Source: Actinobacteria bacterium HGW-Actinobacteria-7 (GTDB taxonomy: Bacteria; Actinomycetota; Coriobacteriia; Anaerosomatales; PHET01). From it: DNA of 64,000 bases. Position numbers and translations under genes: made by a program. The stretch is from positions 171,437 to 235,436 of the forward strand of contig PHET01000001.1 in the NCBI GenBank assembly GCA_002841275.1, in the 5' to 3' direction. Below the pieces are notes generated by a model. That model saw only the letters and a list, made by a program, of their open reading frames with translations, ran no database searches and was not told the DNA's origin. The number at the start of each line of letters is the position of its first letter. Positions within the stretch are counted from its first letter, which is position 1. Of the stretch, positions 5,212-24,175 are shown one piece after another.

Positions 5212-6669
5212 GTGACCGTTCGTGTTCGCTTCGCCCCTTCACCCACTGGGCACCTGCACATCGGGGGCGCTCGCACCGCCATCTATAACTGGGCATTCGC
5301 ACGTCACCACGGTGGCGCCTTCGTGCTTCGCATAGACGACACCGACCTCGAGCGCTCAACCGACGAGAACACCGCGGCGATCCTGCGCTCACTTCGCTGG
5401 CTTGGTCTCGACTGGGACGAAGGCCCTGAGGCTGGCGGAGATTTCGGACCGTACTACCAGACGCAACGCACCGGTACCTACGAGCCGGCACTCGAGCGTA
5501 TGAAAGCAAACGGACACGCCTACCCCTGCTTCTGCACCGCCGAGACGCTCGAGACCAAGCGTGAGGCGTCGCGAGCTGAGGGTGGCTTCTCGGGATACGA
5601 CAGAACCTGTCGCAATCTCGATCCGTCCACCGTTGCCGCGCGGATCGCAGCGGGAGAGCCCCACGTGTGGCGAGTAGCGGTTCCGGACGATCGTGGCGAC
5701 ATCGTGATAGACGATCTCGTCCGCGGCGAGACCCGCTTCCCCATCGATGCCATGGACGACTTCATCCTCGTTCGCACCGACGGCAGCGCGACATACAACT
5801 TCGCGACAGTCGTCGATGACTGGACGATGGCGATGACCCACATCATCCGTGGAGACGACCACCTCTCAAACACCCCGAGGCAGGTCGTGGTCTACGAGGC
5901 ACTCGGCGCCGAAGTGCCCACTTTCGCCCACATGAGCATGATCTTCGGAGCAGACGGCAAGCGCCTGTCAAAGCGCCACGGGGCCACGTCGGTCGAAGCC
6001 TACGCCGAGGAGGGCTTCCTGCCCGAGGCCGTCCTCAACTACCTCGCACTTCTGGGCTGGTCTCTCGATGGCGAGACCACTTTGTTCGACCGCGAGACGC
6101 TTGTCCGCGAATTCGACCTCTCCCGTGTCTCCAAGAGCCCGGCTGTGTGGGATCCCGAGAAGCTCGAATGGATGAACGGCTCCTATATACGTGAGATGTC
6201 CACAGACAAGTTCGTAGACACCATGACGCCGTGGCTCGAGCGTGCCGGGTTCGCTACGGCGGCTGACGTTGCCGCCCGCCGCGACTGGTTTCTCTCACTT
6301 GCCCCACTCATCTCCGAGCGCGTAAAGCGTTTCGACGAGGTCGCCGATAAGGTGGCGTTTCTCTTCGAGGAGCCGACGATCGAGGACTCCGTGCGCGTGA
6401 AGATACTCGAGAAGGACGGTGCAGCCAGAGCTCTCGAGGCCGCAGCTGAGGTGCTCGCCACAGTGGAATTTCACGCCGAGGAGATCGAAGCGGCCCTCAG
6501 AACGGTACCCGAGGCCACTGGGGTCAAGCCCAAAGACGCGTTCCAGGCAATCCGAGTGGCAGCTACCGGCACCACGGTGTCGCCCCCGCTCTTCGAATCG
6601 CTCGAGCTACTCGGCAAGGAGCGGACGTTGGCGCGAATGGCAGCCGCCTTGGAGCTGGTCACGACGTAG
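5212..6669 (+). CDS. gltX: glutamyl-tRNA synthetase
   Basis: 485 aa. Class I HIGH motif (PSPTGHLHIGGART) and a KMSKS-like LSKRHG are present. Confidence 0.95.
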   Translation: MTVRVRFAPSPTGHLHIGGARTAIYNWAFARHHGGAFVLRIDDTDLERSTDENTAAILRSLRWLGLDWDEGPEAGGDFGPYYQTQRTGTYEPALERMKANGHAYPCFCTAETLETKREASRAEGGFSGYDRTCRNLDPSTVAARIAAGEPHVWRVAVPDDRGDIVIDDLVRGETRFPIDAMDDFILVRTDGSATYNFATVVDDWTMAMTHIIRGDDHLSNTPRQVVVYEALGAEVPTFAHMSMIFGADGKRLSKRHGATSVEAYAEEGFLPEAVLNYLALLGWSLDGETTLFDRETLVREFDLSRVSKSPAVWDPEKLEWMNGSYIREMSTDKFVDTMTPWLERAGFATAADVAARRDWFLSLAPLISERVKRFDEVADKVAFLFEEPTIEDSVRVKILEKDGAARALEAAAEVLATVEFHAEEIEAALRTVPEATGVKPKDAFQAIRVAATGTTVSPPLFESLELLGKERTLARMAAALELVTT

Positions 6670-6744: not shown

Positions 6745-6820
6745 AGGGGTATGGTGTAACTGGCAACACGCCGGATTCTGGTTCCGGAGAGTCTAGGTTC
6801 GAGCCCTAGTACCCCTGCCA
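6745..6820 (+). tRNA. tRNA-Gln (anticodon CUG)
   Basis: A cloverleaf with acceptor AGGGGUA/UACCCCU, an anticodon loop with CUG (CCGGAUUCUGGUUCCGG), a T-loop GGUUCGAGCC and an encoded CCA. Confidence 0.85.
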
Positions 6821-6824
6821 GCAC

Positions 6825-6900
6825 GGCCCGTTCGTCTAGCGGTTAGGACACCGCCCTCTCAAGGCGGAGATCACGGGTTCGAATCCCGTACGGGCTACCA
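6825..6900 (+). tRNA. tRNA-Glu (anticodon CUC)
   Basis: GUCUAGCGGUUAGGACACCGCCCUCUCAAGGCGG...GGUUCGAAUCCCGU..CCA, a typical tRNA-Glu D-loop, with anticodon loop CUCUCAA. Confidence 0.85.
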
Positions 6901-8849: not shown

Positions 8850-9200
8850 GACGGAGTGAGCTGGACGGCCGCGCGGTCCTCTTGGGGCCGTGAGGAAAGT
8901 CGGGGCTCCGCAGGGCAGAGTGCCTGCTAACGGCAGGGCGCGGCGACGCGACGGAAAGTGCCACAGAAAAGAAAACCCCCCGGGAGCGATCTTCGGAGGA
9001 AAGCTGAAACGGTGCGGTAAGAGCGCACCAGCGTCACGGCAACGTGGCGGCTTGGCAAACCCCACTCGGAGCAAGGGCGAATAGGAGCGGCATAGGCTTG
9101 CCCGGCCTTCGCTCGGGTACGCCCGCTTGAGGCCGGTGGCGACATCGGTCCCAGATAAATGGTCGTCCACGACAGAACCCCGCTTACAGGCTCACTCCAC
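8850..9200 (+). ncRNA. rnpB: RNase P RNA, bacterial type A
   Basis: Conserved blocks GAGGAAAGUCGGGGCUCC, ACAGAAAAGAAAACC, AAACGGUGCGGUAAGAGCGCACCAG and GGCAAACCCCACUCGGAGCAAGG are present, with ACAGAACCCCGCUUACAGGCUCACUCC near the 3' end. The 5' GGAGUGAGC pairs with the 3' GCUCACUCC to form P1. A TACAAT -10 lies just upstream. Ends are approximate to within 5 nt. Confidence 0.85.
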
Positions 9201-9270
9201 CCGCAAGTGCGACACGGCCGGCCCGATCAACCTGGGCCGGCCGTGTGTGTTACTCCGAAATCTGTACGAG

Positions 9271-17535: not shown

Positions 17536-18783
17536 ATGAGCGCCGACCCCACACACGCATGCGAAAACGAGCCGTGGCAGGGCCGCGCGATTCTCCACGT
17601 CGATCTCGACGCCTTCTTCGCGGCTGTCGAGCAGCTCGATAATCCGGAGTACCGAAACAAGCCAGTGATCGTGGGCGGCGATCCGACGCGGCGCGGCGTC
17701 GTCTCGACCTGCAGCTACGAGGCCCGTGCGTACGGCGTACGTTCCGCGATGGCCTCGGCGCGAGCTGCGCAGCTCTGTCCGCACGCGATCTGGGCCACAC
17801 CCCATTTCGATCGCTACCACGAGATCTCTCAGGCGGTCCTAGCGATATTCCGAGAACAGACTCCGCTGGTCCAACCGGTCTCAATCGACGAGGCATTTCT
17901 CGATGTGACACCGGGGCGGTTTGGCGAAGAACACCCTGTCACCGTCGCGCGACGTATCAGGGCCCGCATCGCGGAGCTGGGTGTGACCGCATCGGTGGGC
18001 ATCGCGAGTTCCAAGACCGTCGCCAAGATCGCGTCTGACTTCGACAAGCCCGACGGACTGACCATCGTCTGCCCCGGCGACGAACGTGCCTTCCTCGCCC
18101 CACTCCCCGTCCGCGACATGAGCGGCATCGGTCCCAAGACAGCCGAACGTCTGCACGCTCTCGGCATACGAACGCTTGGGGATCTTGCAGCCCTCGACGA
18201 CGCCACCGCGCGAGAAGTTCTGGGGTCACATGGTCCCGGGCTCGCACTGCGTGCGCGCGGCACCGACGAGAGGGATGTCCGCGACAACGACCCGGTGAAG
18301 TCCGTCTCAAACGAGCGGACCTTCTCGGTCGATGTCCGTCAGCCCTCAGAGATAGACGTCGCGTTGGACCGCTTGACGGAGAAGGTTGGCCAACGTCTTC
18401 GCCGCAAGGCGCTGGCGGGCAGGACCGTCACGGTGAAGCTGCGCTTCTCGGACCTCTCCTACCGGACGGTGCGCAAGTCCTTGGCTGCTGCGACCAATGA
18501 CGAGCACGTCTTCGGCCCTGTGGCCCGGCAGCTGGTGCGTGAGGCGTGGACTCCGGGTGTGGGGCTGCGACTCCTTGGCGTGGGCGTCTCCGGCTTCCAG
18601 GAACGGGCCGAGCAGCTCGATCTTCTAGGCGAGCTCGATGGCGCGCCGGCACAACCCTCAGCCGGCCGAGAAGACCTGGTGCGCGGCATCGATGCCGTTC
18701 GCGAGAAGTTCGGCGACGGAGCGTTGAAGTTCGGGCGCGAGCTCAAGGTCCCGCCTGACACCGGCACGCCGCGACGGGACTAG
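17536..18783 (+). CDS. dinB: DNA polymerase IV (Y-family)
   Basis: Motifs ILHVDLDAFFAAVE, SIDEAFLDVT and ASVGIASSKTVAKIAS are present. The start was set at MSADPTH..., giving about 415 aa. Confidence 0.9.
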   Translation: MSADPTHACENEPWQGRAILHVDLDAFFAAVEQLDNPEYRNKPVIVGGDPTRRGVVSTCSYEARAYGVRSAMASARAAQLCPHAIWATPHFDRYHEISQAVLAIFREQTPLVQPVSIDEAFLDVTPGRFGEEHPVTVARRIRARIAELGVTASVGIASSKTVAKIASDFDKPDGLTIVCPGDERAFLAPLPVRDMSGIGPKTAERLHALGIRTLGDLAALDDATAREVLGSHGPGLALRARGTDERDVRDNDPVKSVSNERTFSVDVRQPSEIDVALDRLTEKVGQRLRRKALAGRTVTVKLRFSDLSYRTVRKSLAAATNDEHVFGPVARQLVREAWTPGVGLRLLGVGVSGFQERAEQLDLLGELDGAPAQPSAGREDLVRGIDAVREKFGDGALKFGRELKVPPDTGTPRRD

Positions 18784-21700
18784 GTCCGTCCCTCCCCCCA
18801 CCCTGCGCGCTCCTCTGCTGCGATCGCCACCTCGCTCCACGACTCCTCCTCGGGCGCCCCAGCACCGCCAAGTGACGGCCCCATGGGCCCGCTGGGCACC
18901 CCGCGCCGCATCCGCACCGGAGAGCCACTCGCTGTGCGCACCACGTAGGGCTTGATGTCGTTGGCGACGATCGCCAGCCCTCTCTCACAGTTGTTCTGCA
19001 ACGTACCGTCGATGAGATAGGCCCGGTGCTTCACGATCACATCGCCCGCACGGGCAAGCGTGTCCGAGAAGACCACGACGTCGAGCAGCCCCGTGGGGTC
19101 CTCGAGCGTGAGGAAGCAGGTGCGCTTGCCCGAACGCGTCCGAGGGGTCTGCGCCCGTTCTCTCACCCCGCAGACACGCACTCGTGAACGGTCGGGCAGC
19201 TCGCGTAGGTCGCGCGCCCACGTTACGCCGCGCGCGATCAGATCGGCGGTCGCGAGCGCGAGTGGATGATCGGTGAGCGACAACCCCACGAGCTCGAGCT
19301 CCGCCGACAAACGCCGAGCCGGACTCCAGCCGCTCACATGGCTCGCGTCCTCGGCGGGACGCACTGGCGCGGGGGCAAGGCACAACACGTCATCACCGGC
19401 GCTCCCTTCGCGGGCGAGTACCGCTTTGACCTCGGGCAGCAACGCGAGCAACTCATCGCGCGTGGGTGGACGATCGGCCTCGGTGATACCCAGACCGTCG
19501 AGCGCGCCGATGCGGATGAGCGACTCTGTCGCCGAGACCTCGGCTCGAGTTCGCCGCAGGAAGTCCGTGAGATCGCAAAACGGGCGCACCGTGCGCTCTC
19601 GCGGAATCTCTTCGAGTAAGCGCGCGGTCATCCGGTGGACGTCTCTGAGGCCCACCCGGATGGCAGTTCCGGCCTCCTCAACCGTGTAGCGCGCCTCGCT
19701 CGCATTGATGTGCGGGGGCAGGATACGGATGCCATGTCGTCGGGCGTCGTTGACCACCAGCCGCGGCGTGTAGAACCCCATGGGCTCGTTGTTCAGAATC
19801 GCGGTCGCGAACTCGCCCGGGTAGTAGGTACGCAGCCACGCCGTCGCATAGCTCACCACCGCGAAACACGCCGCGTGCGCCTTGTTGAAGCCGTATGCCG
19901 CGAACCCTTCGAGTTGCCGGAATACTTCTGCGGCGACCTCAGCGTCCACGCCACGGGCCAGCGCGCGCTCGAGGAAGTGACCACGGATGCGCTCCATCTC
20001 TTCTCGGCTGCGCCCCTTGGTCATCGCACGGCGAAGTGAGTCGGCCTCCGCCAGACCGAAGCCGGCGACCGCGCGTGCCACGAGCAGTACCTGCTCCTGG
20101 TAGACGATCACGCCGTAGGTGTCACCCAGAACCGCCCGCATTCCCTCGTGCGGCACGCTCACCGGCTCCAGCCCATGCCGGCGCCGAATGAACGGCACGA
20201 TCATCTCGGCCTCTAGAGGACCGGGCCTGAACAGCGATATCTGCGCGATGATGTCTTCGAATCGGCTGGGCTTCAGACGTGTTGAGAGGTTGCGCTGCCC
20301 GCTCGATTCGAGCTGGAACATCCCCACGGTGTCTGCCGAGGAGACCTGCTCGTAAACGCGCGGATCGTCCGGCACGAGATCGAACGGTTCCGGCACCGCA
20401 TCTTCGCCCACGCGCGCACGGGCCAGTTCGACCGCCTCGCTGATCGCCGAGTGAGTCCGAAGCCCCAGAATGTCCATCTTCACGAGCCCGAGGACCTCGA
20501 TGTCGTCTTTGTCGTACTGCGAGACCACCGTGCCCTTGGCCGCCCACTGCAGCGGCATCCAGCTCGCCACCGGCTCACGCGTGATGATGAAGCCGCCTAG
20601 GTGCGTGCCCAGGTGCGTGGGCGTGTGGTCGAGCTGCTCAGCAATCTCGAGTATGGGTGTATAGCGCGGGTCGTGCAGCGGGTGGTCGCGGCATTCCGGA
20701 TAACTTTCCAGCACCTCGCGGATCTTACGTGCGCTCACCCACGGCAGATGGCGCGAAAGTGAGTTGACCTCGGCGATGGGCAGCCCGAACGCGCGTGCCG
20801 CGATACGCACCGCACTGCGCGCGGTCGTGGTGTTCACGGTCGCCACCATCGCGACATGCTCGTGCCCGAACCGCCGGTAGATGAAATCGATGATCTCGTC
20901 TCGGCGCGCCGAGTCGAAGTCCACATCGATGTCGGGCATCTGGCGGCGTTCAGGGTTCAAGAACCGCTCGAAGAGCAGGTCGTGCCGCACGGGATCGGCG
21001 TCGGTGATGCCCAGCGCATAGCTCACGATACTGTCGCCCGCACTCCCCCGCCCGCTGCACCGGATTCCCGAGCGTTTCGCGAAGTCCACAATCTCTTTGA
21101 CCACGAGAAAGTACTCGGGGAAGCCCATCTGGTCGATCAGCGCGAGCTCGTGCTGTAGCCGCCGAATCGCCTCCGGCGTCATGGGTCGATAGCGGTGCTC
21201 GAGTCCGCGCCACGACTCCTTCGCGAGCACCGAATACGGCGTCTCGCCTGCTGGTATATCCGCTCCCGGGAAGTGGAATTCCCCCAACGGAAGCTCGAAC
21301 CCGGCACAACGCGCCGCGATCTCGAGTGTCGCATCACACGCCCTCTCGATTCCCGAGAAGAGCTCACGCATCGCAGACGCAGGCTTCAACCACAGCTCAC
21401 CGTTGGGACGGTCGTAGGGCCCCGGAAGCGCCATGCGCGCGCCAGCCGCCGAGAGCACGTCGTGGAGCCGGTGATCACGGGCACGAAGGTAGTGCACATC
21501 ATTGGTGGCAACCACCGGCAGACCCAGGTCATCGGCCACCCGCACAAGGCCACTGATGACCCGAGGCGCATGCACGGTGAGCGTGTGTACGAGCTCGACG
21601 TAGAAACTTCCCGGCTCGAAACAGTCCGAGAGCCGTGCGATCGCTGCGCTCGCACGCCCCGCATGTCCGGCCGCCACCGCTTGTGCCGCCTCACCGTTAC

Positions 21701-22178
21701 CACACCCCGACAGGCCGATAAGCCCTCCCGAGAAGGTCTTGAGATCGTGCAGGTGGACGACACTCGGCACTTCAGCGCCCCGCAGGTGAGTACGGGAGAG
21801 CAGCCGGCACAGGTTGCGATAACCCTCGAAATCGCGGGCGAGCAGCGTCAGGTGGAACCCTGAGGCTGAAGCGCGTCCGAACCCCACGCTCGCTGGCGTC
21901 ACAAGGCGTGCCTCGGGAGGCAGATCCGCCTCCCCGCCTGCCACCCCGGCTGTTTCGACCACCACCTCGCAGCCGACGAGGGGCATGATGCCCGCCGCCT
22001 TGCATGCAGTGTAGAACCGGATCGCCCCCGAGAGCCCCTGGTGGTCGGTGAGCGCCAGCGCCGGCATCTCGAGTTCAGCCGCGCGGGCGATAAGCCCTTC
22101 GATTGATGCGGCACCATCCATAAAACTGAACGGTGAATGAGTATGGAGGTGAACGAACCCCCCGGATGCAGCGCCCAC
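18780..22178 (-). CDS. dnaE2: error-prone DNA polymerase III alpha-like subunit (DnaE2/ImuC-type); the start is ambiguous (GTG at 22178 or upstream ATG at 22289)
   Basis: A PHP domain (FVHLHTHSPFSFMDGAAS), a polymerase core and an OB fold are present, but there is no tau-binding C-terminal extension, giving about 1,130 aa. A LexA box lies upstream of the operon. The gene is convergent with dinB, and their 3' ends overlap by 4 nt. Confidence 0.85.
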   Translation of the reverse strand: MGAASGGFVHLHTHSPFSFMDGAASIEGLIARAAELEMPALALTDHQGLSGAIRFYTACKAAGIMPLVGCEVVVETAGVAGGEADLPPEARLVTPASVGFGRASASGFHLTLLARDFEGYRNLCRLLSRTHLRGAEVPSVVHLHDLKTFSGGLIGLSGCGNGEAAQAVAAGHAGRASAAIARLSDCFEPGSFYVELVHTLTVHAPRVISGLVRVADDLGLPVVATNDVHYLRARDHRLHDVLSAAGARMALPGPYDRPNGELWLKPASAMRELFSGIERACDATLEIAARCAGFELPLGEFHFPGADIPAGETPYSVLAKESWRGLEHRYRPMTPEAIRRLQHELALIDQMGFPEYFLVVKEIVDFAKRSGIRCSGRGSAGDSIVSYALGITDADPVRHDLLFERFLNPERRQMPDIDVDFDSARRDEIIDFIYRRFGHEHVAMVATVNTTTARSAVRIAARAFGLPIAEVNSLSRHLPWVSARKIREVLESYPECRDHPLHDPRYTPILEIAEQLDHTPTHLGTHLGGFIITREPVASWMPLQWAAKGTVVSQYDKDDIEVLGLVKMDILGLRTHSAISEAVELARARVGEDAVPEPFDLVPDDPRVYEQVSSADTVGMFQLESSGQRNLSTRLKPSRFEDIIAQISLFRPGPLEAEMIVPFIRRRHGLEPVSVPHEGMRAVLGDTYGVIVYQEQVLLVARAVAGFGLAEADSLRRAMTKGRSREEMERIRGHFLERALARGVDAEVAAEVFRQLEGFAAYGFNKAHAACFAVVSYATAWLRTYYPGEFATAILNNEPMGFYTPRLVVNDARRHGIRILPPHINASEARYTVEEAGTAIRVGLRDVHRMTARLLEEIPRERTVRPFCDLTDFLRRTRAEVSATESLIRIGALDGLGITEADRPPTRDELLALLPEVKAVLAREGSAGDDVLCLAPAPVRPAEDASHVSGWSPARRLSAELELVGLSLTDHPLALATADLIARGVTWARDLRELPDRSRVRVCGVRERAQTPRTRSGKRTCFLTLEDPTGLLDVVVFSDTLARAGDVIVKHRAYLIDGTLQNNCERGLAIVANDIKPYVVRTASGSPVRMRRGVPSGPMGPSLGGAGAPEEESWSEVAIAAEERAGWGEGRT

Positions 22179-22185
22179 CCGGCAT

Positions 22186-22602
22186 CTAGTCCTGGATACC
22201 AGTGAGCAGCCAGCCGCCACGCGCACGATCGAATGCGAGGTCGTAGACGCCGCCTTGGGACAGCACCCGGAAGAAGCGACGCGAAACATGACGGCGCGGG
22301 TCCCACCAGCGACGTTCGGTCGCCCACACTTGAATCACGGCATCGACGATATAGCGCCTGTCCGAACGAGTGAACGATAGCGGGCACTGCCTATGTGCGT
22401 CCCATTCGACGCTGACCGATTCTTCCACTCGTTTGGTAGCACAGCCTCCGTCACTGCGCCCGATCTCTGAGGCCCTTACAATCCACGGGCTCCTGAGCAG
22501 TTCGACTATCACCGGGCGACGGGACCGCGTGCTATCGAACAGCTCAAGCGGTTGGCCGGCGGGTGTGGCGTCGTATCGTTTGATAGCAGCGTTACGGCCC
22601 AC
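22186..22602 (-). CDS. uncharacterised 138-aa basic protein that is the first gene of the LexA-box operon with dnaE2
   Basis: The ORF MGRNAAIKRYDATPAGQPLELFDS...RRYIVDAVIQVWATERRWWDP...GGVYDLAFDRARGGWLLTGIQD has no family I can name. Its stop lies 7 nt before the dnaE2 GTG start, or inside the gene if the ATG at 22289 is used. It sits about 60 nt downstream of the Cheo box. Confidence 0.5.
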   Translation of the reverse strand: MGRNAAIKRYDATPAGQPLELFDSTRSRRPVIVELLRSPWIVRASEIGRSDGGCATKRVEESVSVEWDAHRQCPLSFTRSDRRYIVDAVIQVWATERRWWDPRRHVSRRFFRVLSQGGVYDLAFDRARGGWLLTGIQD

Positions 22603-22710: not shown

Positions 22711-23355
22711 CTAGGAGGGTTCCACCATCACGAACCGCGCGACCTCACGGGCGAGCGCTCGGGACTTCCCTGCGATACGGACCGTAAGAGGGCCGGCGAA
22801 CGGCTCGGCGCTCATCACTTCGACCTGAACACCAGGACGCATGCCGATATCCCCAAGGTAACCCAAAACCTCTTCGTCCTCCGCCACGCGCAGCACCGTC
22901 ACCACTCCGCCGGGCTCAACGAGATCCAGACTCGTCCCTCCAATGGCCGCTACGGAACCATCAGCCAACGGGATGGGATGGCCGTGGGGACAGACAGTGG
23001 GATCGCCCAAGTAGCGCTCGAGAGCCTCAAGTACCCTCGGAGACAGAGCATGCTCGAGAAGGCACGCCTCCTCGTGGGCCGCCTCCCAGTCCAGACCCAG
23101 AGTATCCACCAGAAACCTCTCAGCGATCCGGTGCCTGCGGACGATATCGACAGAACGCGTAACGCCCTCAGGGGTGAGCACGACACTCGTTCCATCACGC
23201 GTCACCAGCCCGTGGGCCTCAAGCCGCTTGAGTGTGGCGGTAACAGTGGGTCCTGAGACTCCGATCGCATCCGCAATCTGAGTTGGCCGCGCCGGCCCTT
23301 CCTGAGACAGTTTATAGATCGCCTCAAGGTACTCTTCGAGCGTTGGAGTAGGCAT
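22711..23355 (-). CDS. DtxR/IdeR-family metal-dependent transcriptional regulator with a C-terminal FeoA/SH3-like domain
   Basis: An N-terminal HTH (MPTPTLEEYLEAIYKLSQEGPARPTQIADAIGVSGPTVTATLKRLE), a metal-binding region (HRIAERFL, HEEAC, CPHGHP) and an SH3-like C-terminus are present. Confidence 0.85.
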   Translation of the reverse strand: MPTPTLEEYLEAIYKLSQEGPARPTQIADAIGVSGPTVTATLKRLEAHGLVTRDGTSVVLTPEGVTRSVDIVRRHRIAERFLVDTLGLDWEAAHEEACLLEHALSPRVLEALERYLGDPTVCPHGHPIPLADGSVAAIGGTSLDLVEPGGVVTVLRVAEDEEVLGYLGDIGMRPGVQVEVMSAEPFAGPLTVRIAGKSRALAREVARFVMVEPS

Positions 23356-23537
23356 CCGAAGCGTCCCTTTCGGCGATGATCGCAAGGCTTTCGAAGAAAC
23401 GATACCATGCCACGAGTCCGTGTCGACCTCACGTCAAGAGCGCTCAAGACCGCTTAACCGTTCGTCTTACCAACATTACCTTTCGCGTGTCCCAATATTC
23501 CTTTCATCAGCTATTTCGACAATTTCCAAGAAACGCG

Positions 23538-23566
23538 TTGACACCCTCAGGGAGCATGGGTACAGT
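23538..23566 (+). promoter_or_regulatory. strong sigma70 consensus promoter with no ORF downstream
   Basis: TTGACA, then a 17-nt spacer, then TACAGT, in a locally AT-richer region. It is divergent from the DtxR/IdeR gene. Confidence 0.6.
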
Positions 23567-23572
23567 ACATCT

Positions 23573-23773
23573 TGTCCCGAGAAGTCGGACGCAGCAGGAC
23601 TCCGGAAGACGGTGTACCAGTAGCCACCGGAGAGTCACCCTAGTGACATCGGCACAACCGCGAGGTGGCCGAAGAATCGAAGGGGCTCGATGGAGGGAAA
23701 CCCCGCAAGGGGGCGGTTCGTAAGGGCCGCGGGAAGCCGACTCGAGTAGGAGACCTCGCGGGCGAGGTTTCTC
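23573..23773 (+). ncRNA. candidate ~200-nt structured small RNA of unknown family; candidate only
   Basis: The transcript is predicted from the promoter above. It is a GC-rich, stem-rich region in which the 5' GUCCCGAGAA can pair with the 3' UUCUCGGGAC. It ends at a hairpin (ACCUCGC-GG-GCGAGGU) followed by UUCUC. No ORF of 30 codons or more in this frame or orientation has an RBS. It is convergent with the queD 3' end. Confidence 0.35.
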
Positions 23774-23803
23774 GGGACACCTCTATGCCCAGACCCCTCA
23801 CGC

Positions 23804-24175
23804 TCAGGGGCGATACACCAGTCGGGCTATCGGAGACTCCCACACAACGACTTCAACGACCCGTACACGCGAATCGACCGTCTCCTGAAGCTTCTCGCAG
23901 ATCACCCGCGCGAGATTCTCGGCCGTCGGGCTCAGCGCGTCGAACGGCGTCACGTCGTTGATGAGCACATGATCATACTGGGAAAGCACCGAAGACAGGT
24001 CCTCTTTCAGCGTCTTGAAATCGTAGACGATGCCGATTTCGTCGAGTTCTGATCCCGCGACCGTGACTTCGACGTCCCAGGTATGCCCGTGGAGGTTGCG
24101 GCACTCCCCCGGATACCCATAGAGGTGATGGGCAGCATCGAAGTGCCCTTTGACGGTAAGCTCGTACGTGCCCAT
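23804..24175 (-). CDS. queD: 6-carboxy-5,6,7,8-tetrahydropterin synthase (QueD/PTPS family)
   Basis: 123 aa with the PTPS motifs CRNLHGHTW and GHFDAAHHL. Confidence 0.85.
   Translation of the reverse strand: MGTYELTVKGHFDAAHHLYGYPGECRNLHGHTWDVEVTVAGSELDEIGIVYDFKTLKEDLSSVLSQYDHVLINDVTPFDALSPTAENLARVICEKLQETVDSRVRVVEVVVWESPIARLVYRP

Follow-up and report, generated by a model that had tools for sequence, protein, structure and literature searches.

6S RNAs (SsrS, Rfam family RF00013), which sequester bacterial RNA polymerase, are 160–200 nucleotides (nt) long (PMC8414754) and share a rod shape that consists of a closing stem, a central loop and an apical stem (PMC8414754, PMC9130861). From Escherichia coli to Aquifex, their hallmarks are a GG at positions 4/5 or 5/6 of the product RNA (pRNA) and an A 3′ of the start site; the pRNA begins with a purine, many 6S RNAs carry a hairpin opposite the 5′ strand of the loop, and rarA is their characteristic neighbor in Firmicutes (PMC8414754). 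Although regarded as almost universal in bacteria, 6S RNA has been reported missing from Actinobacteria, where only Ms1 of the Actinomycetia is known (PMC9130861), a report that leaves the niche open. The subject of this analysis is an RNA gene in a 64,000-nt stretch of contig PHET01000001.1 (GenBank assembly GCA_002841275.1) of Actinobacteria bacterium HGW-Actinobacteria-7, a member of the Coriobacteriia; this whole stretch is referred to below as the window. The gene lies between queD and a gene of the DtxR family and encodes a 6S-like, rod-shaped RNA that fails the 6S model-based test and may represent a new class.

Two other RNAs of the phylum invite comparison. Ms1, which binds the RNA polymerase core, is a stand-alone, abundant and 6S-related RNA that is conserved in position rather than in sequence and adjoins a HAD-hydrolase gene (PMC9130861). 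Compared by description only, the rod RNA is likewise a stand-alone RNA of this phylum but differs from Ms1 in its length (166–211 nt), in its location between queD and the DtxR-like gene or elsewhere, and in its high sequence conservation. Ms1 is about 300 nt long. The raiA-motif RNA (RF03072), also from these phyla, is abundant, structured and stand-alone, and its function is not established; it measures about 200 nt, occurs in Coriobacteriia and folds into six or more stems arranged around junctions, with two pseudoknots (PMC10861870). Like the rod RNA, it stands alone, is about 200 nt long and contains many highly conserved nucleotides and E-loop-type modules. Unlike it, the rod RNA is unbranched and without a detected pseudoknot, and none of the four members scanned matches RF03072; the raiA-motif RNA was rejected as a candidate on these grounds.

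The RNA gene, its fold and its family

Positions 23573–23782 of the plus strand, together with a tail of about 10 nt, constitute a separately transcribed, stand-alone non-coding RNA (ncRNA) gene of about 210 nt; this, in our opinion, is beyond reasonable doubt. The intergenic region that contains the gene measures 448 nt, which is long by bacterial standards. A preliminary description of this DNA had assigned the span 23386–23803 to a promoter and a structured RNA. That span does contain the promoter region and the RNA, but the RNA proper covers only 23573–23782, with the tail extending to about 23792. The same description had proposed an independently transcribed, structured, plus-strand RNA, devoid of open reading frames (ORFs) and with the geometry of a closed long hairpin, and the gene's own promoter and covarying rod fold bear this out. 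There is no plausible ORF inside the RNA: the plus-strand ORFs that overlap it either have their start codon before the promoter or extend into queD in antisense, and the longest sense ORF across 104 family members has a median length of 31 amino acids (aa). The exact transcript (23573–23782) folds with a z-score of −3.5. Folding with the flanks included gives a multi-branched and misleading structure, whereas the exact transcript and the folds of the family give the rod.

Scans against Rfam 15 assign the RNA to no described family. At the gathering score, no family matches the RNA region in the window; at E ≤ 10 on both strands, four diverse members (the window copy and those of loci L059, L042 and L086) yield no meaningful match, and permissive scans return chance matches only (CRISPR-DR19, PhotoRC-I and snoRNA models). 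The covariance-model scan therefore agrees, on both strands, with the earlier failure to recognize a SAM, glycine, cobalamin, SRP or tmRNA consensus.

The strand is settled: the RNA is encoded on the plus strand. The covariance model of the family scores the sense strand at 110–175 bits and the antisense strand at 14–24 bits, and the sense fold is the more stable one in 102 of 104 copies, with a mean gap of 14 kcal/mol. A 6C-type RNA on the minus strand had been offered as an alternative. 6C RNA is a short RNA of two hairpins with C-rich loops; it is an actinobacterial small RNA (sRNA), and the minus strand of the region is indeed C-rich. However, the strand scores, the fold stabilities and the direction of the promoter contradict this reading, no 6C match was found in Rfam, and a rod of 175 nt is unlike two short hairpins; the candidate was therefore rejected.

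Every copy, when folded alone, adopts the shape of a single long irregular hairpin. The consensus structure was obtained as a vote across single-sequence folds, followed by a pair-counting test, with two alignments: A1 (65 copies), from which covariance model R1 was built, and the broader A2 (108 distinct rows). In A1, paired cells amount to 91.9%, as compared with 83.1% in shuffles and 29–47% with slid partners; both sides change in 28 of the 47 pairs, and the covariation score is 0.328 versus 0.168 in shuffles. The corresponding figures for A2 are 90.4% paired cells versus 79.7% in shuffles, compensatory changes in 35 of 51 pairs, and a covariation score of 0.355 versus 0.169 in shuffles and at most 0.07 with slid partners; none of 500 shuffles reached any of the five observed measures. 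The fold is retained although pairwise identity within the family falls to 0.44, so that conservation and covariation in relatives speak for the RNA. The consensus has 176 positions and the rod about 175 nt; the window copy is 210 nt long because of an insertion of 29 nt.

From its ends to its tip, the rod comprises a closing arm of about 40 nt (helices P1–P3), a central region of internal loops that hardly vary, and a GNRA-capped apical arm of some 72 nt (coordinates in Table 1). The terminal helix P1 (consensus positions 1–14 with 160–173) contains a perfect 11-nt complement, TGTCCCGAGAA (23573–23583) with TTCTCGGGACA (23769–23779), which G·U pairs extend to 14 base pairs (bp). The complementarity between the two ends that had been described before is thus real, and longer than claimed. 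The wobble pair G12·U is kept in all 104 copies and U13·G in 99 of 104, while compensatory changes convert G7:C to A:U in 12 copies and to C:G in two, and A11:U to G:C in 19. Inside P1 follow the short helices P1b, P2 and P2a and then a conserved GAAA/GAGUA loop (GGAAG/GAGUA in the window copy), which, judged by its sequence pattern, resembles the AGUA/GAA (S-turn or loop-E) motif. P3, the next helix, covaries most strongly of all, with changes on both sides of each of its five pairs and up to five pair types per position.

The central region places GUACCAGUAGC opposite 5′-GAAAC...GGGAA. Its elements are, in order, GUA/GAA, two C:G pairs (C23618 and C23617 with G23731 and G23732, respectively) and AGUAG/AAAC, with conservation of at least 97% at nearly every base. 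Since none of 106 copies departs from the two C:G pairs, covariation cannot test them. In the apical arm, compensatory changes are found in nearly every pair, and the terminal loop is GCGA, GUGA or GCAA family-wide. The 29-nt insertion lies between GAAAC and GGGAA and is restricted to the window copy and those of L001, L003, L005, L006, L008 and L011; both of its hairpins are seen in single-sequence folds. An unrelated UUCG hairpin occupies the same site in L065 (3535–3733). Two independent insertions at one point mark the site as solvent-exposed and tolerant of insertion. No pseudoknot, multi-stem junction or long-range covariation was detected outside the rod, and mutual information showed no convincing pseudoknot of tail or leader.

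The 14 nt that follow P1 have the family pattern A-C-Y-U-S-U-N-U-K-Y-Y-C-N-G, in which U4, U6 and U8 are more than 91% conserved; no covariation of this tail with the RNA body was found. The tail may serve for processing or binding or may be a degenerate U-tract; on one reading, P1 would act together with such a tract as a terminator. In L086, a run of eight U directly follows P1. A GC-rich hairpin with a T-rich tail is present within 80 nt downstream of 55 of 149 copies, as compared with 11 of 162 random 80-mers; no canonical terminator was found downstream of the window copy. The GC hairpin followed by UUCUC, at which the RNA had been thought to end, does exist in the window copy (23750–23759 with 23762–23771) but is not conserved in relatives. 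Because the conserved helices P1, P2 and P2a need the same nucleotides, it lies outside the conserved fold; it was rejected as a terminator.

The RNA belongs to a conserved and widespread family of the Coriobacteriia, apparently uncatalogued as far as checked. More than 160 homologous copies are present in uncultured Coriobacteriia genomes and metagenomes, 1–3 per genome; their length ranges from 166 to 211 nt and is typically 166–182 nt, most copies measuring 172–180 nt. Of the 80 loci that a genome scan with the DtxR-like protein yielded, nearly all belong to uncultured Coriobacteriia. A search of these loci with the window RNA (nhmmer) gave full-length matches (query positions 1–210) in 58, and model R1 gave 72 matches in DtxR-anchored loci, including the most distant Coriobacteriia (L060, EMTCatB1; L063, a metagenome-assembled genome (MAG) labeled ‘Slackia’); R1 matched none of the 11 loci with DtxR homologs from other phyla. 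The pattern used in the metagenome scan (at least 120 stretches) consisted of the two central-loop strands only, which makes that scan independent of P1 and of the neighboring genes, and at least 89 of its matches were confirmed by the covariance model at 67–175 bits.

The one low-GC member of the family is that of L086 (7102–7274, plus strand, contig Ga0315284_10000016), with 40% GC in the RNA and about 44% in the locus. This copy rebuilds every helix from A-U pairs and keeps the blocks GUCCCAAGAAGU, GUACCAGUAGCUGC, GAGUAAGAAAUGGGAA and GAUUUCUUGGGAC, which shows that the family extends beyond the high-GC clade. Many genomes have 2–3 paralogs. A second copy lies between the DtxR and DUF6504 genes in L026, L032, L041, L042, L044 and L052, and tandem copies are present in L036 and L117. 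In the DnaE2-side copy, the apical arm is longer and the central loop reads CAGCUGC, not CAGUAGC. A copy linked to DtxR and queD (L147) and another without that link (L082) share the 2.04-Mb contig MCHG01000001.1. Contigs frequently break off at the RNA or beside it (L091, L111, L127, L137), a pattern to be expected where repeated copies interrupt the assembly.

These data also bear on the possibility that there is no separate gene here at all, the region being instead the 3′ untranslated region (UTR) and terminator of queD, the minus-strand 6C-type RNA discussed above, or a miniature inverted-repeat mobile element, which we regard as extremely improbable. The RNA does end only 22 nt from the queD stop codon and, in the window, does so without a canonical terminator; moreover, the arms of P1 form an inverted repeat in the DNA, and some genomes have two or three copies. 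Against the UTR reading, the plus-strand promoter is conserved, the same RNA and promoter occur at about 20 loci without queD among the metagenome matches listed, and no terminator-like site for queD was found at the RNA region in the window; this reading was rejected. A mobile element is contradicted by the covariation of the internal helices and by the position of the RNA, which is conserved even where the DtxR proteins of two genomes share only 53% identity. No plasmid match was found, and the two pattern matches on viral contigs are chance matches unconfirmed by the model; the RNA is chromosomal.

Promoter elements and the adjacent regulator

The promoter proposed earlier, TTGACA and TACAGT with a 17-nt spacer, is present and agrees with the consensus at 10 of 12 positions; three promoter-like sites occur in the 2-kb region versus 0.4 expected from shuffles. 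The AT-richer island described around it is likewise there, with a GC content of 0.45–0.52 over 23400–23600 versus about 0.62 in the flanks. The pattern TTG...-(16–18)-TAnnnT served to anchor every one of the 148 unique upstream regions of the family, and the promoter, whose pattern is itself the anchoring criterion, ends 5–6 nt before the first conserved base of the RNA. The spacer is 17 nt long in 140 of the 148, and its sequence is not conserved. Since the conserved RNA begins 5–6 nt after the −10 hexamer, transcription probably starts at U23573 or G23574, i.e., at the first or second nucleotide of P1.

Upstream of the promoter lies an unexpected feature of the family, a set of three phased direct repeats. 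They begin 80, 59 and 38 nt before the first T of the −35 hexamer and are spaced by exactly 21 nt, or two helical turns. Almost all high-GC copies, whatever their genomic context, share this promoter at a constant distance from the RNA as well as three CCGTTCR repeats, and in the profile of the 148 upstream regions the CC of each repeat is more than 92% conserved. The L086 copy, which has a perfect TTGACT-17-TATAAT promoter, has no CCGTTCR repeats. A relaxed triple-repeat pattern finds 86 matches upstream of RNA copies and 42 elsewhere, the latter being equal to the shuffled background (45–52 in 1.13 Mb); because of this, the array is specific to these RNA genes. The repeats are presumed binding sites and probably bind a dedicated transcription factor. 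Between them and the −35 hexamer, a semi-palindrome (AATTTC-N3-GAAAC in the window) is semi-conserved in the upstream profile, with perfect palindromes in several copies (e.g., L116, L134 and L149).

One clear array occurs outside the RNA family, at 6177–6225 of L108, upstream of a TTGTTC-17-TAGATT promoter. The candidate sRNA there (region 6177–6412, plus strand) is a stretch of about 110 nt without an ORF, has a strong terminator at 6362–6400, folds with a z-score of −3.7 and adjoins a ribH-like gene; it differs from the rod RNA, and no Rfam family matched it. This array hints that the repeats may define a small regulon of RNA genes. In the window, no CCGTTCR array precedes the RNase P RNA gene or the two tRNA genes.

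The position of the RNA next to a metal-dependent regulator had suggested a metal-responsive sRNA, i.e., a base-pairing RNA under the control of the adjacent DtxR/IdeR-family protein and a functional analog of RyhB. We consider this improbable. It is true that the RNA and a DtxR-family gene are transcribed away from each other at almost every Coriobacteriia locus and that extra copies sometimes lie on the other side of the regulator, as a second paralog does in one clade. The order queD, RNA, DtxR, (genes), DUF6504, DnaE2 is conserved through the class, with the RNA inverted in L026, L039 and L040. The repeats are flanked by two divergent promoters, since the candidate promoter of the DtxR-like gene is situated about 30 nt past the outermost CCGTTCG. 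It is true, too, that conserved upstream elements must bind some factor and that the pyrimidine-rich single-stranded tail could serve as a seed. However, about 20 of the 89 metagenomic copies listed have no DtxR or queD gene within the fetched locus; their neighbors include gatB with a 5′-nucleotidase and an MFS transporter, a GGDEF protein, DUF2779, an epimerase and, in L086, rarA, and the high-GC copies among them keep the same promoter elements. Conversely, DtxR homologs outside the Coriobacteriia are accompanied by neither the RNA nor the repeats, and in L057 (600–700; Coriobacteriia MAG Lab288P3bin234) queD and DtxR are 75 nt apart with no RNA between them, the RNA having been either lost or moved.

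The upstream elements also differ from the expected operator. DtxR/IdeR operators are typically palindromes of 19 bp, whereas the elements found here are direct repeats, and the spacer of the promoter is not conserved. A scan of 23340–23575 against the 19-position box TWAGGTWAGSCTWACCTWA gave a best match of 12/19, a background level, since the whole window holds 35 sites at 12 and three at 13; the search for a palindromic DtxR/IdeR-type operator in the intergenic region thus returned background-level matches only. Moreover, base-pairing sRNAs do not resemble a 175-nt RNA whose structured loops hardly vary. Given the unlinked copies with the same promoter elements and the lack of an operator, the association of the RNA with the DtxR-like gene is best read as conserved gene order and not as evidence of metal control.

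Divergent pairs of a regulator and an sRNA, such as OxyR/OxyS, GcvA/GcvB and SgrR/SgrS, offer a broader parallel. The present RNA, too, is transcribed divergently from a transcription-factor gene, with intergenic control elements between the two. It differs from such pairs in that the association is not obligatory, the elements are unlike DtxR operators, and the RNA lacks the pattern of a short seed in a variable body.

Comparison with 6S RNA and with a possible new RNA class

The absence of a downstream target in cis and of a linked protein gene, together with a rod that has an invariant central loop, makes that of 6S RNA the closest known way of working. Our best guess at the mechanism, which we put at a little short of an even chance, is therefore that the RNA is a divergent RNA polymerase-binding RNA of the 6S type, acting in trans. 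The ‘6S-like’ label of the preliminary description thus stays the best available functional analogy, with respect to the rod shape, the geometry of the arms and the signature of a pRNA template. By this analogy, the housekeeping RNA polymerase holoenzyme would be occupied by the rod, which would imitate an open promoter; short product RNAs beginning 5′-(A/G)CUGGUAC would be copied from the invariant 5′ loop strand, and their synthesis would release the polymerase when nucleotides are plentiful.

The likeness to 6S RNA extends over several levels. Both are stand-alone genes, here with a strong sigma-70-type promoter and a typical length of 166–182 nt; both are unbranched rods, the arms and loops of the family measuring 40/11/72/10/42 nt, while in E. 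coli 6S, folded in the same manner, the closing arm ends at 41/144 and the apical arm has about 73 nt. The 5′ loop strand carries a CC...Y-A signature, hairpins are inserted opposite it, and there are 1–3 paralogs per genome. The invariant GUACCAG is followed in 104 of 104 copies by a pyrimidine, from which a product RNA beginning with a purine would result, and then in 85 of 104 by an A. With the putative start opposite U23621, the predicted product (A/G)CUGGUAC would have GG at positions 4/5 and, in the same 85 of 104 copies, an A 3′ of the start; the predicted product of the window copy begins ACUGGUACACCGUC. The nucleotide predicted to initiate the product is A in some paralogs and G in others, which recalls the difference between 6S-1 and 6S-2 of B. 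subtilis. Finally, the L086 copy lies 93 nt upstream of rarA (Pfam MgsA_C, E = 5e-71). In Proteobacteria the neighbor of 6S is ygfA.

Several observations weigh against the 6S-type reading. The Rfam 6S model, which scores E. coli ssrS at 139.8 bits in a control, matches none of the four diverse members at E ≤ 10, and model R1 in turn does not match E. coli ssrS. The bubble, which in 6S RNA is large and single-stranded and mimics an open promoter, is small here (11 nt on the 5′ side and 10 nt on the 3′ side) and is split by the two invariant C:G pairs, and its halves look, by sequence, like structured AGUA/GAA-type loops rather than open strands. The sequence-invariant P1 with its tandem G·U, the GAAA/GAGUA loop and the conserved 3′ tail are left unexplained by a 6S model, and the conserved GNRA apex is a further difference. 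Masking of 10, 14 or 18 template nucleotides, an admittedly weak test based on minimum free energy folds only, produced no new pair in at least 40% of copies, the best reaching 26%; thus, no conserved alternative helix of the kind that ejects the polymerase from 6S RNA was found. The pRNA signature is low in information, and by a rough estimate would arise by chance in such a loop about 5% of the time. No other family copy was found next to rarA, so that this link rests on one locus. As to earlier reports, no literature linking 6S RNA with Coriobacteriia or Eggerthella was found, although the main 6S survey was outside the coverage of the search and an earlier prediction is possible.

The main rival reading is that the RNA represents a new class of structured (‘ornate’) RNA that binds a protein or a ligand and whose function is unrelated to 6S. 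On this account, which we rate as nearly as likely as the 6S type and thus also below an even chance, the invariant P1, the S-turn-like loops and the GNRA apex would form a specific three-dimensional surface for a partner, and the phased-repeat promoter would belong to an RNA regulon. It agrees with the lack of any matching Rfam family, with the conserved tandem G·U wobble of P1, with the presence of three conserved AGUA/GAA-like loops in addition to the apex and tail, and with the absence of a 6S-type release helix from the folds; the same repeat array, moreover, precedes a different candidate sRNA in L108. There is also a precedent in the raiA-motif RNA, the function of which is still not established (PMC10861870). 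On the other hand, no conserved partner gene is linked to the family, whose contexts vary (queD/DtxR, gatB, rarA, GGDEF, DUF2779). An unbranched rod with a conserved central loop and these dimensions is what a 6S-type RNA requires, and the pseudoknots and multi-stem junctions that were looked for were not detected. With similar reservation we suggest that this RNA may be the first representative of a class of rod-shaped, highly structured regulatory RNAs and that Coriobacteriia may possess an RNA regulon of a kind not seen before, including the L108 candidate, controlled by a transcription factor through CCGTTCR repeats.

If the 6S-type reading is correct, the family would show regulation of RNA polymerase by RNA across the whole class Coriobacteriia, which includes gut and sediment anaerobes, and would show that 6S function can reside in sequences that the current model fails to recognize. 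Otherwise, the family would constitute a new and widespread RNA whose covariation is excellent and whose dedicated promoter is unusual; it should be noted that orphan structured RNAs have repeatedly led to new biochemistry. In either case, the alignment and the covariance model annotate a long conserved intergenic region.

Feature coordinates and neighboring genes

Table 1. Elements of the RNA gene and its neighborhood in the window (position 1 is the first nucleotide of the window)
Feature	Position	Strand	Remarks
Three phased direct repeats	23458–23506	+	CCGTTCG 23458–23464, CCTTTCG 23479–23485, CCTTTCA 23500–23506
A/T-rich semi-palindrome AATTTC-N3-GAAAC	23521–23534	+	just upstream of −35; family consensus ATTTC-N2-4-GAAA
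−35 hexamer TTGACA	23538–23543	+	following A and C about 89% conserved across 148 upstream regions
−10 hexamer TACAGT	23561–23566	+	conserved RNA starts 6 nt downstream
ncRNA core (covariance-model positions 1–176)	23573–23782	+	model R1, 128 bits, E = 1.5e-27
P1, 5′ strand UGUCCCGAGAAGUC	23573–23586	+	pairs with 23766–23779; near-invariant; tandem G·U/U·G wobble 23584–23585
Internal-loop strand GGAAG (family GAAAG)	23604–23608	+	opposite GAGUA 23744–23748; GAAA and UA positions 90–97% conserved
P3, 5′ strand	23609–23613	+	pairs with 23736–23742 (2-nt bulge)
Central region, 5′ strand GUACCAGUAGC	23614–23624	+	GUACCAG at least 97% conserved; candidate pRNA template under the 6S hypothesis
Apical arm P4–P6	23625–23691	+	variable sequence, conserved pairing; GNRA tetraloop GCGA 23660–23663
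Central region, 3′ strand, first part GGAGGGAAAC	23692–23701	+	GGAG closes P4; GAAAC opposite AGUAG; GAAA at least 97% conserved
29-nt insertion with two GNRA hairpins	23702–23730	+	CCC-GCAA-GGG and GCGGUUC-GUAA-GGGCCGC; 3′ strand, opposite the 5′ loop strand
Central region, 3′ strand, second part GGGAA	23731–23735	+	at least 97% conserved; GAA opposite GUA
P1, 3′ strand GGUUUCUCGGGACA	23766–23779	+	partner of 23573–23586
Pyrimidine-rich 3′ tail, remainder	23783–23792	+	whole tail after GGGAC is ACCUCUAUGCCCAG (23779–23792)
DUF6504 gene, then DnaE2-type error-prone polymerase gene	18780–22602	minus	left of the DtxR-like gene
DtxR-family regulator gene, 214 aa	22711–23355	minus	Pfam Fe_dep_repress, Fe_dep_repr_C, FeoA; left of the RNA
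Candidate promoter of the DtxR-like gene	23399–23426	minus	TCGACA, 16 nt, TATCGT, upstream TG
queD (PTPS family)	23804–24175	minus	right of the RNA; followed by DUF167 and DivIVA genes

The DUF6504/DnaE2 pair, which resembles a mutagenesis cassette, adjoins the DtxR-like gene in most Coriobacteriia loci; in some of them, 2–4 kb of other genes separate the two. The other RNA genes of the window are a bacterial class A RNase P RNA (8853–9202, plus strand, 293 bits) and two tRNA genes (6745–6817 and 6825–6897, plus strand).

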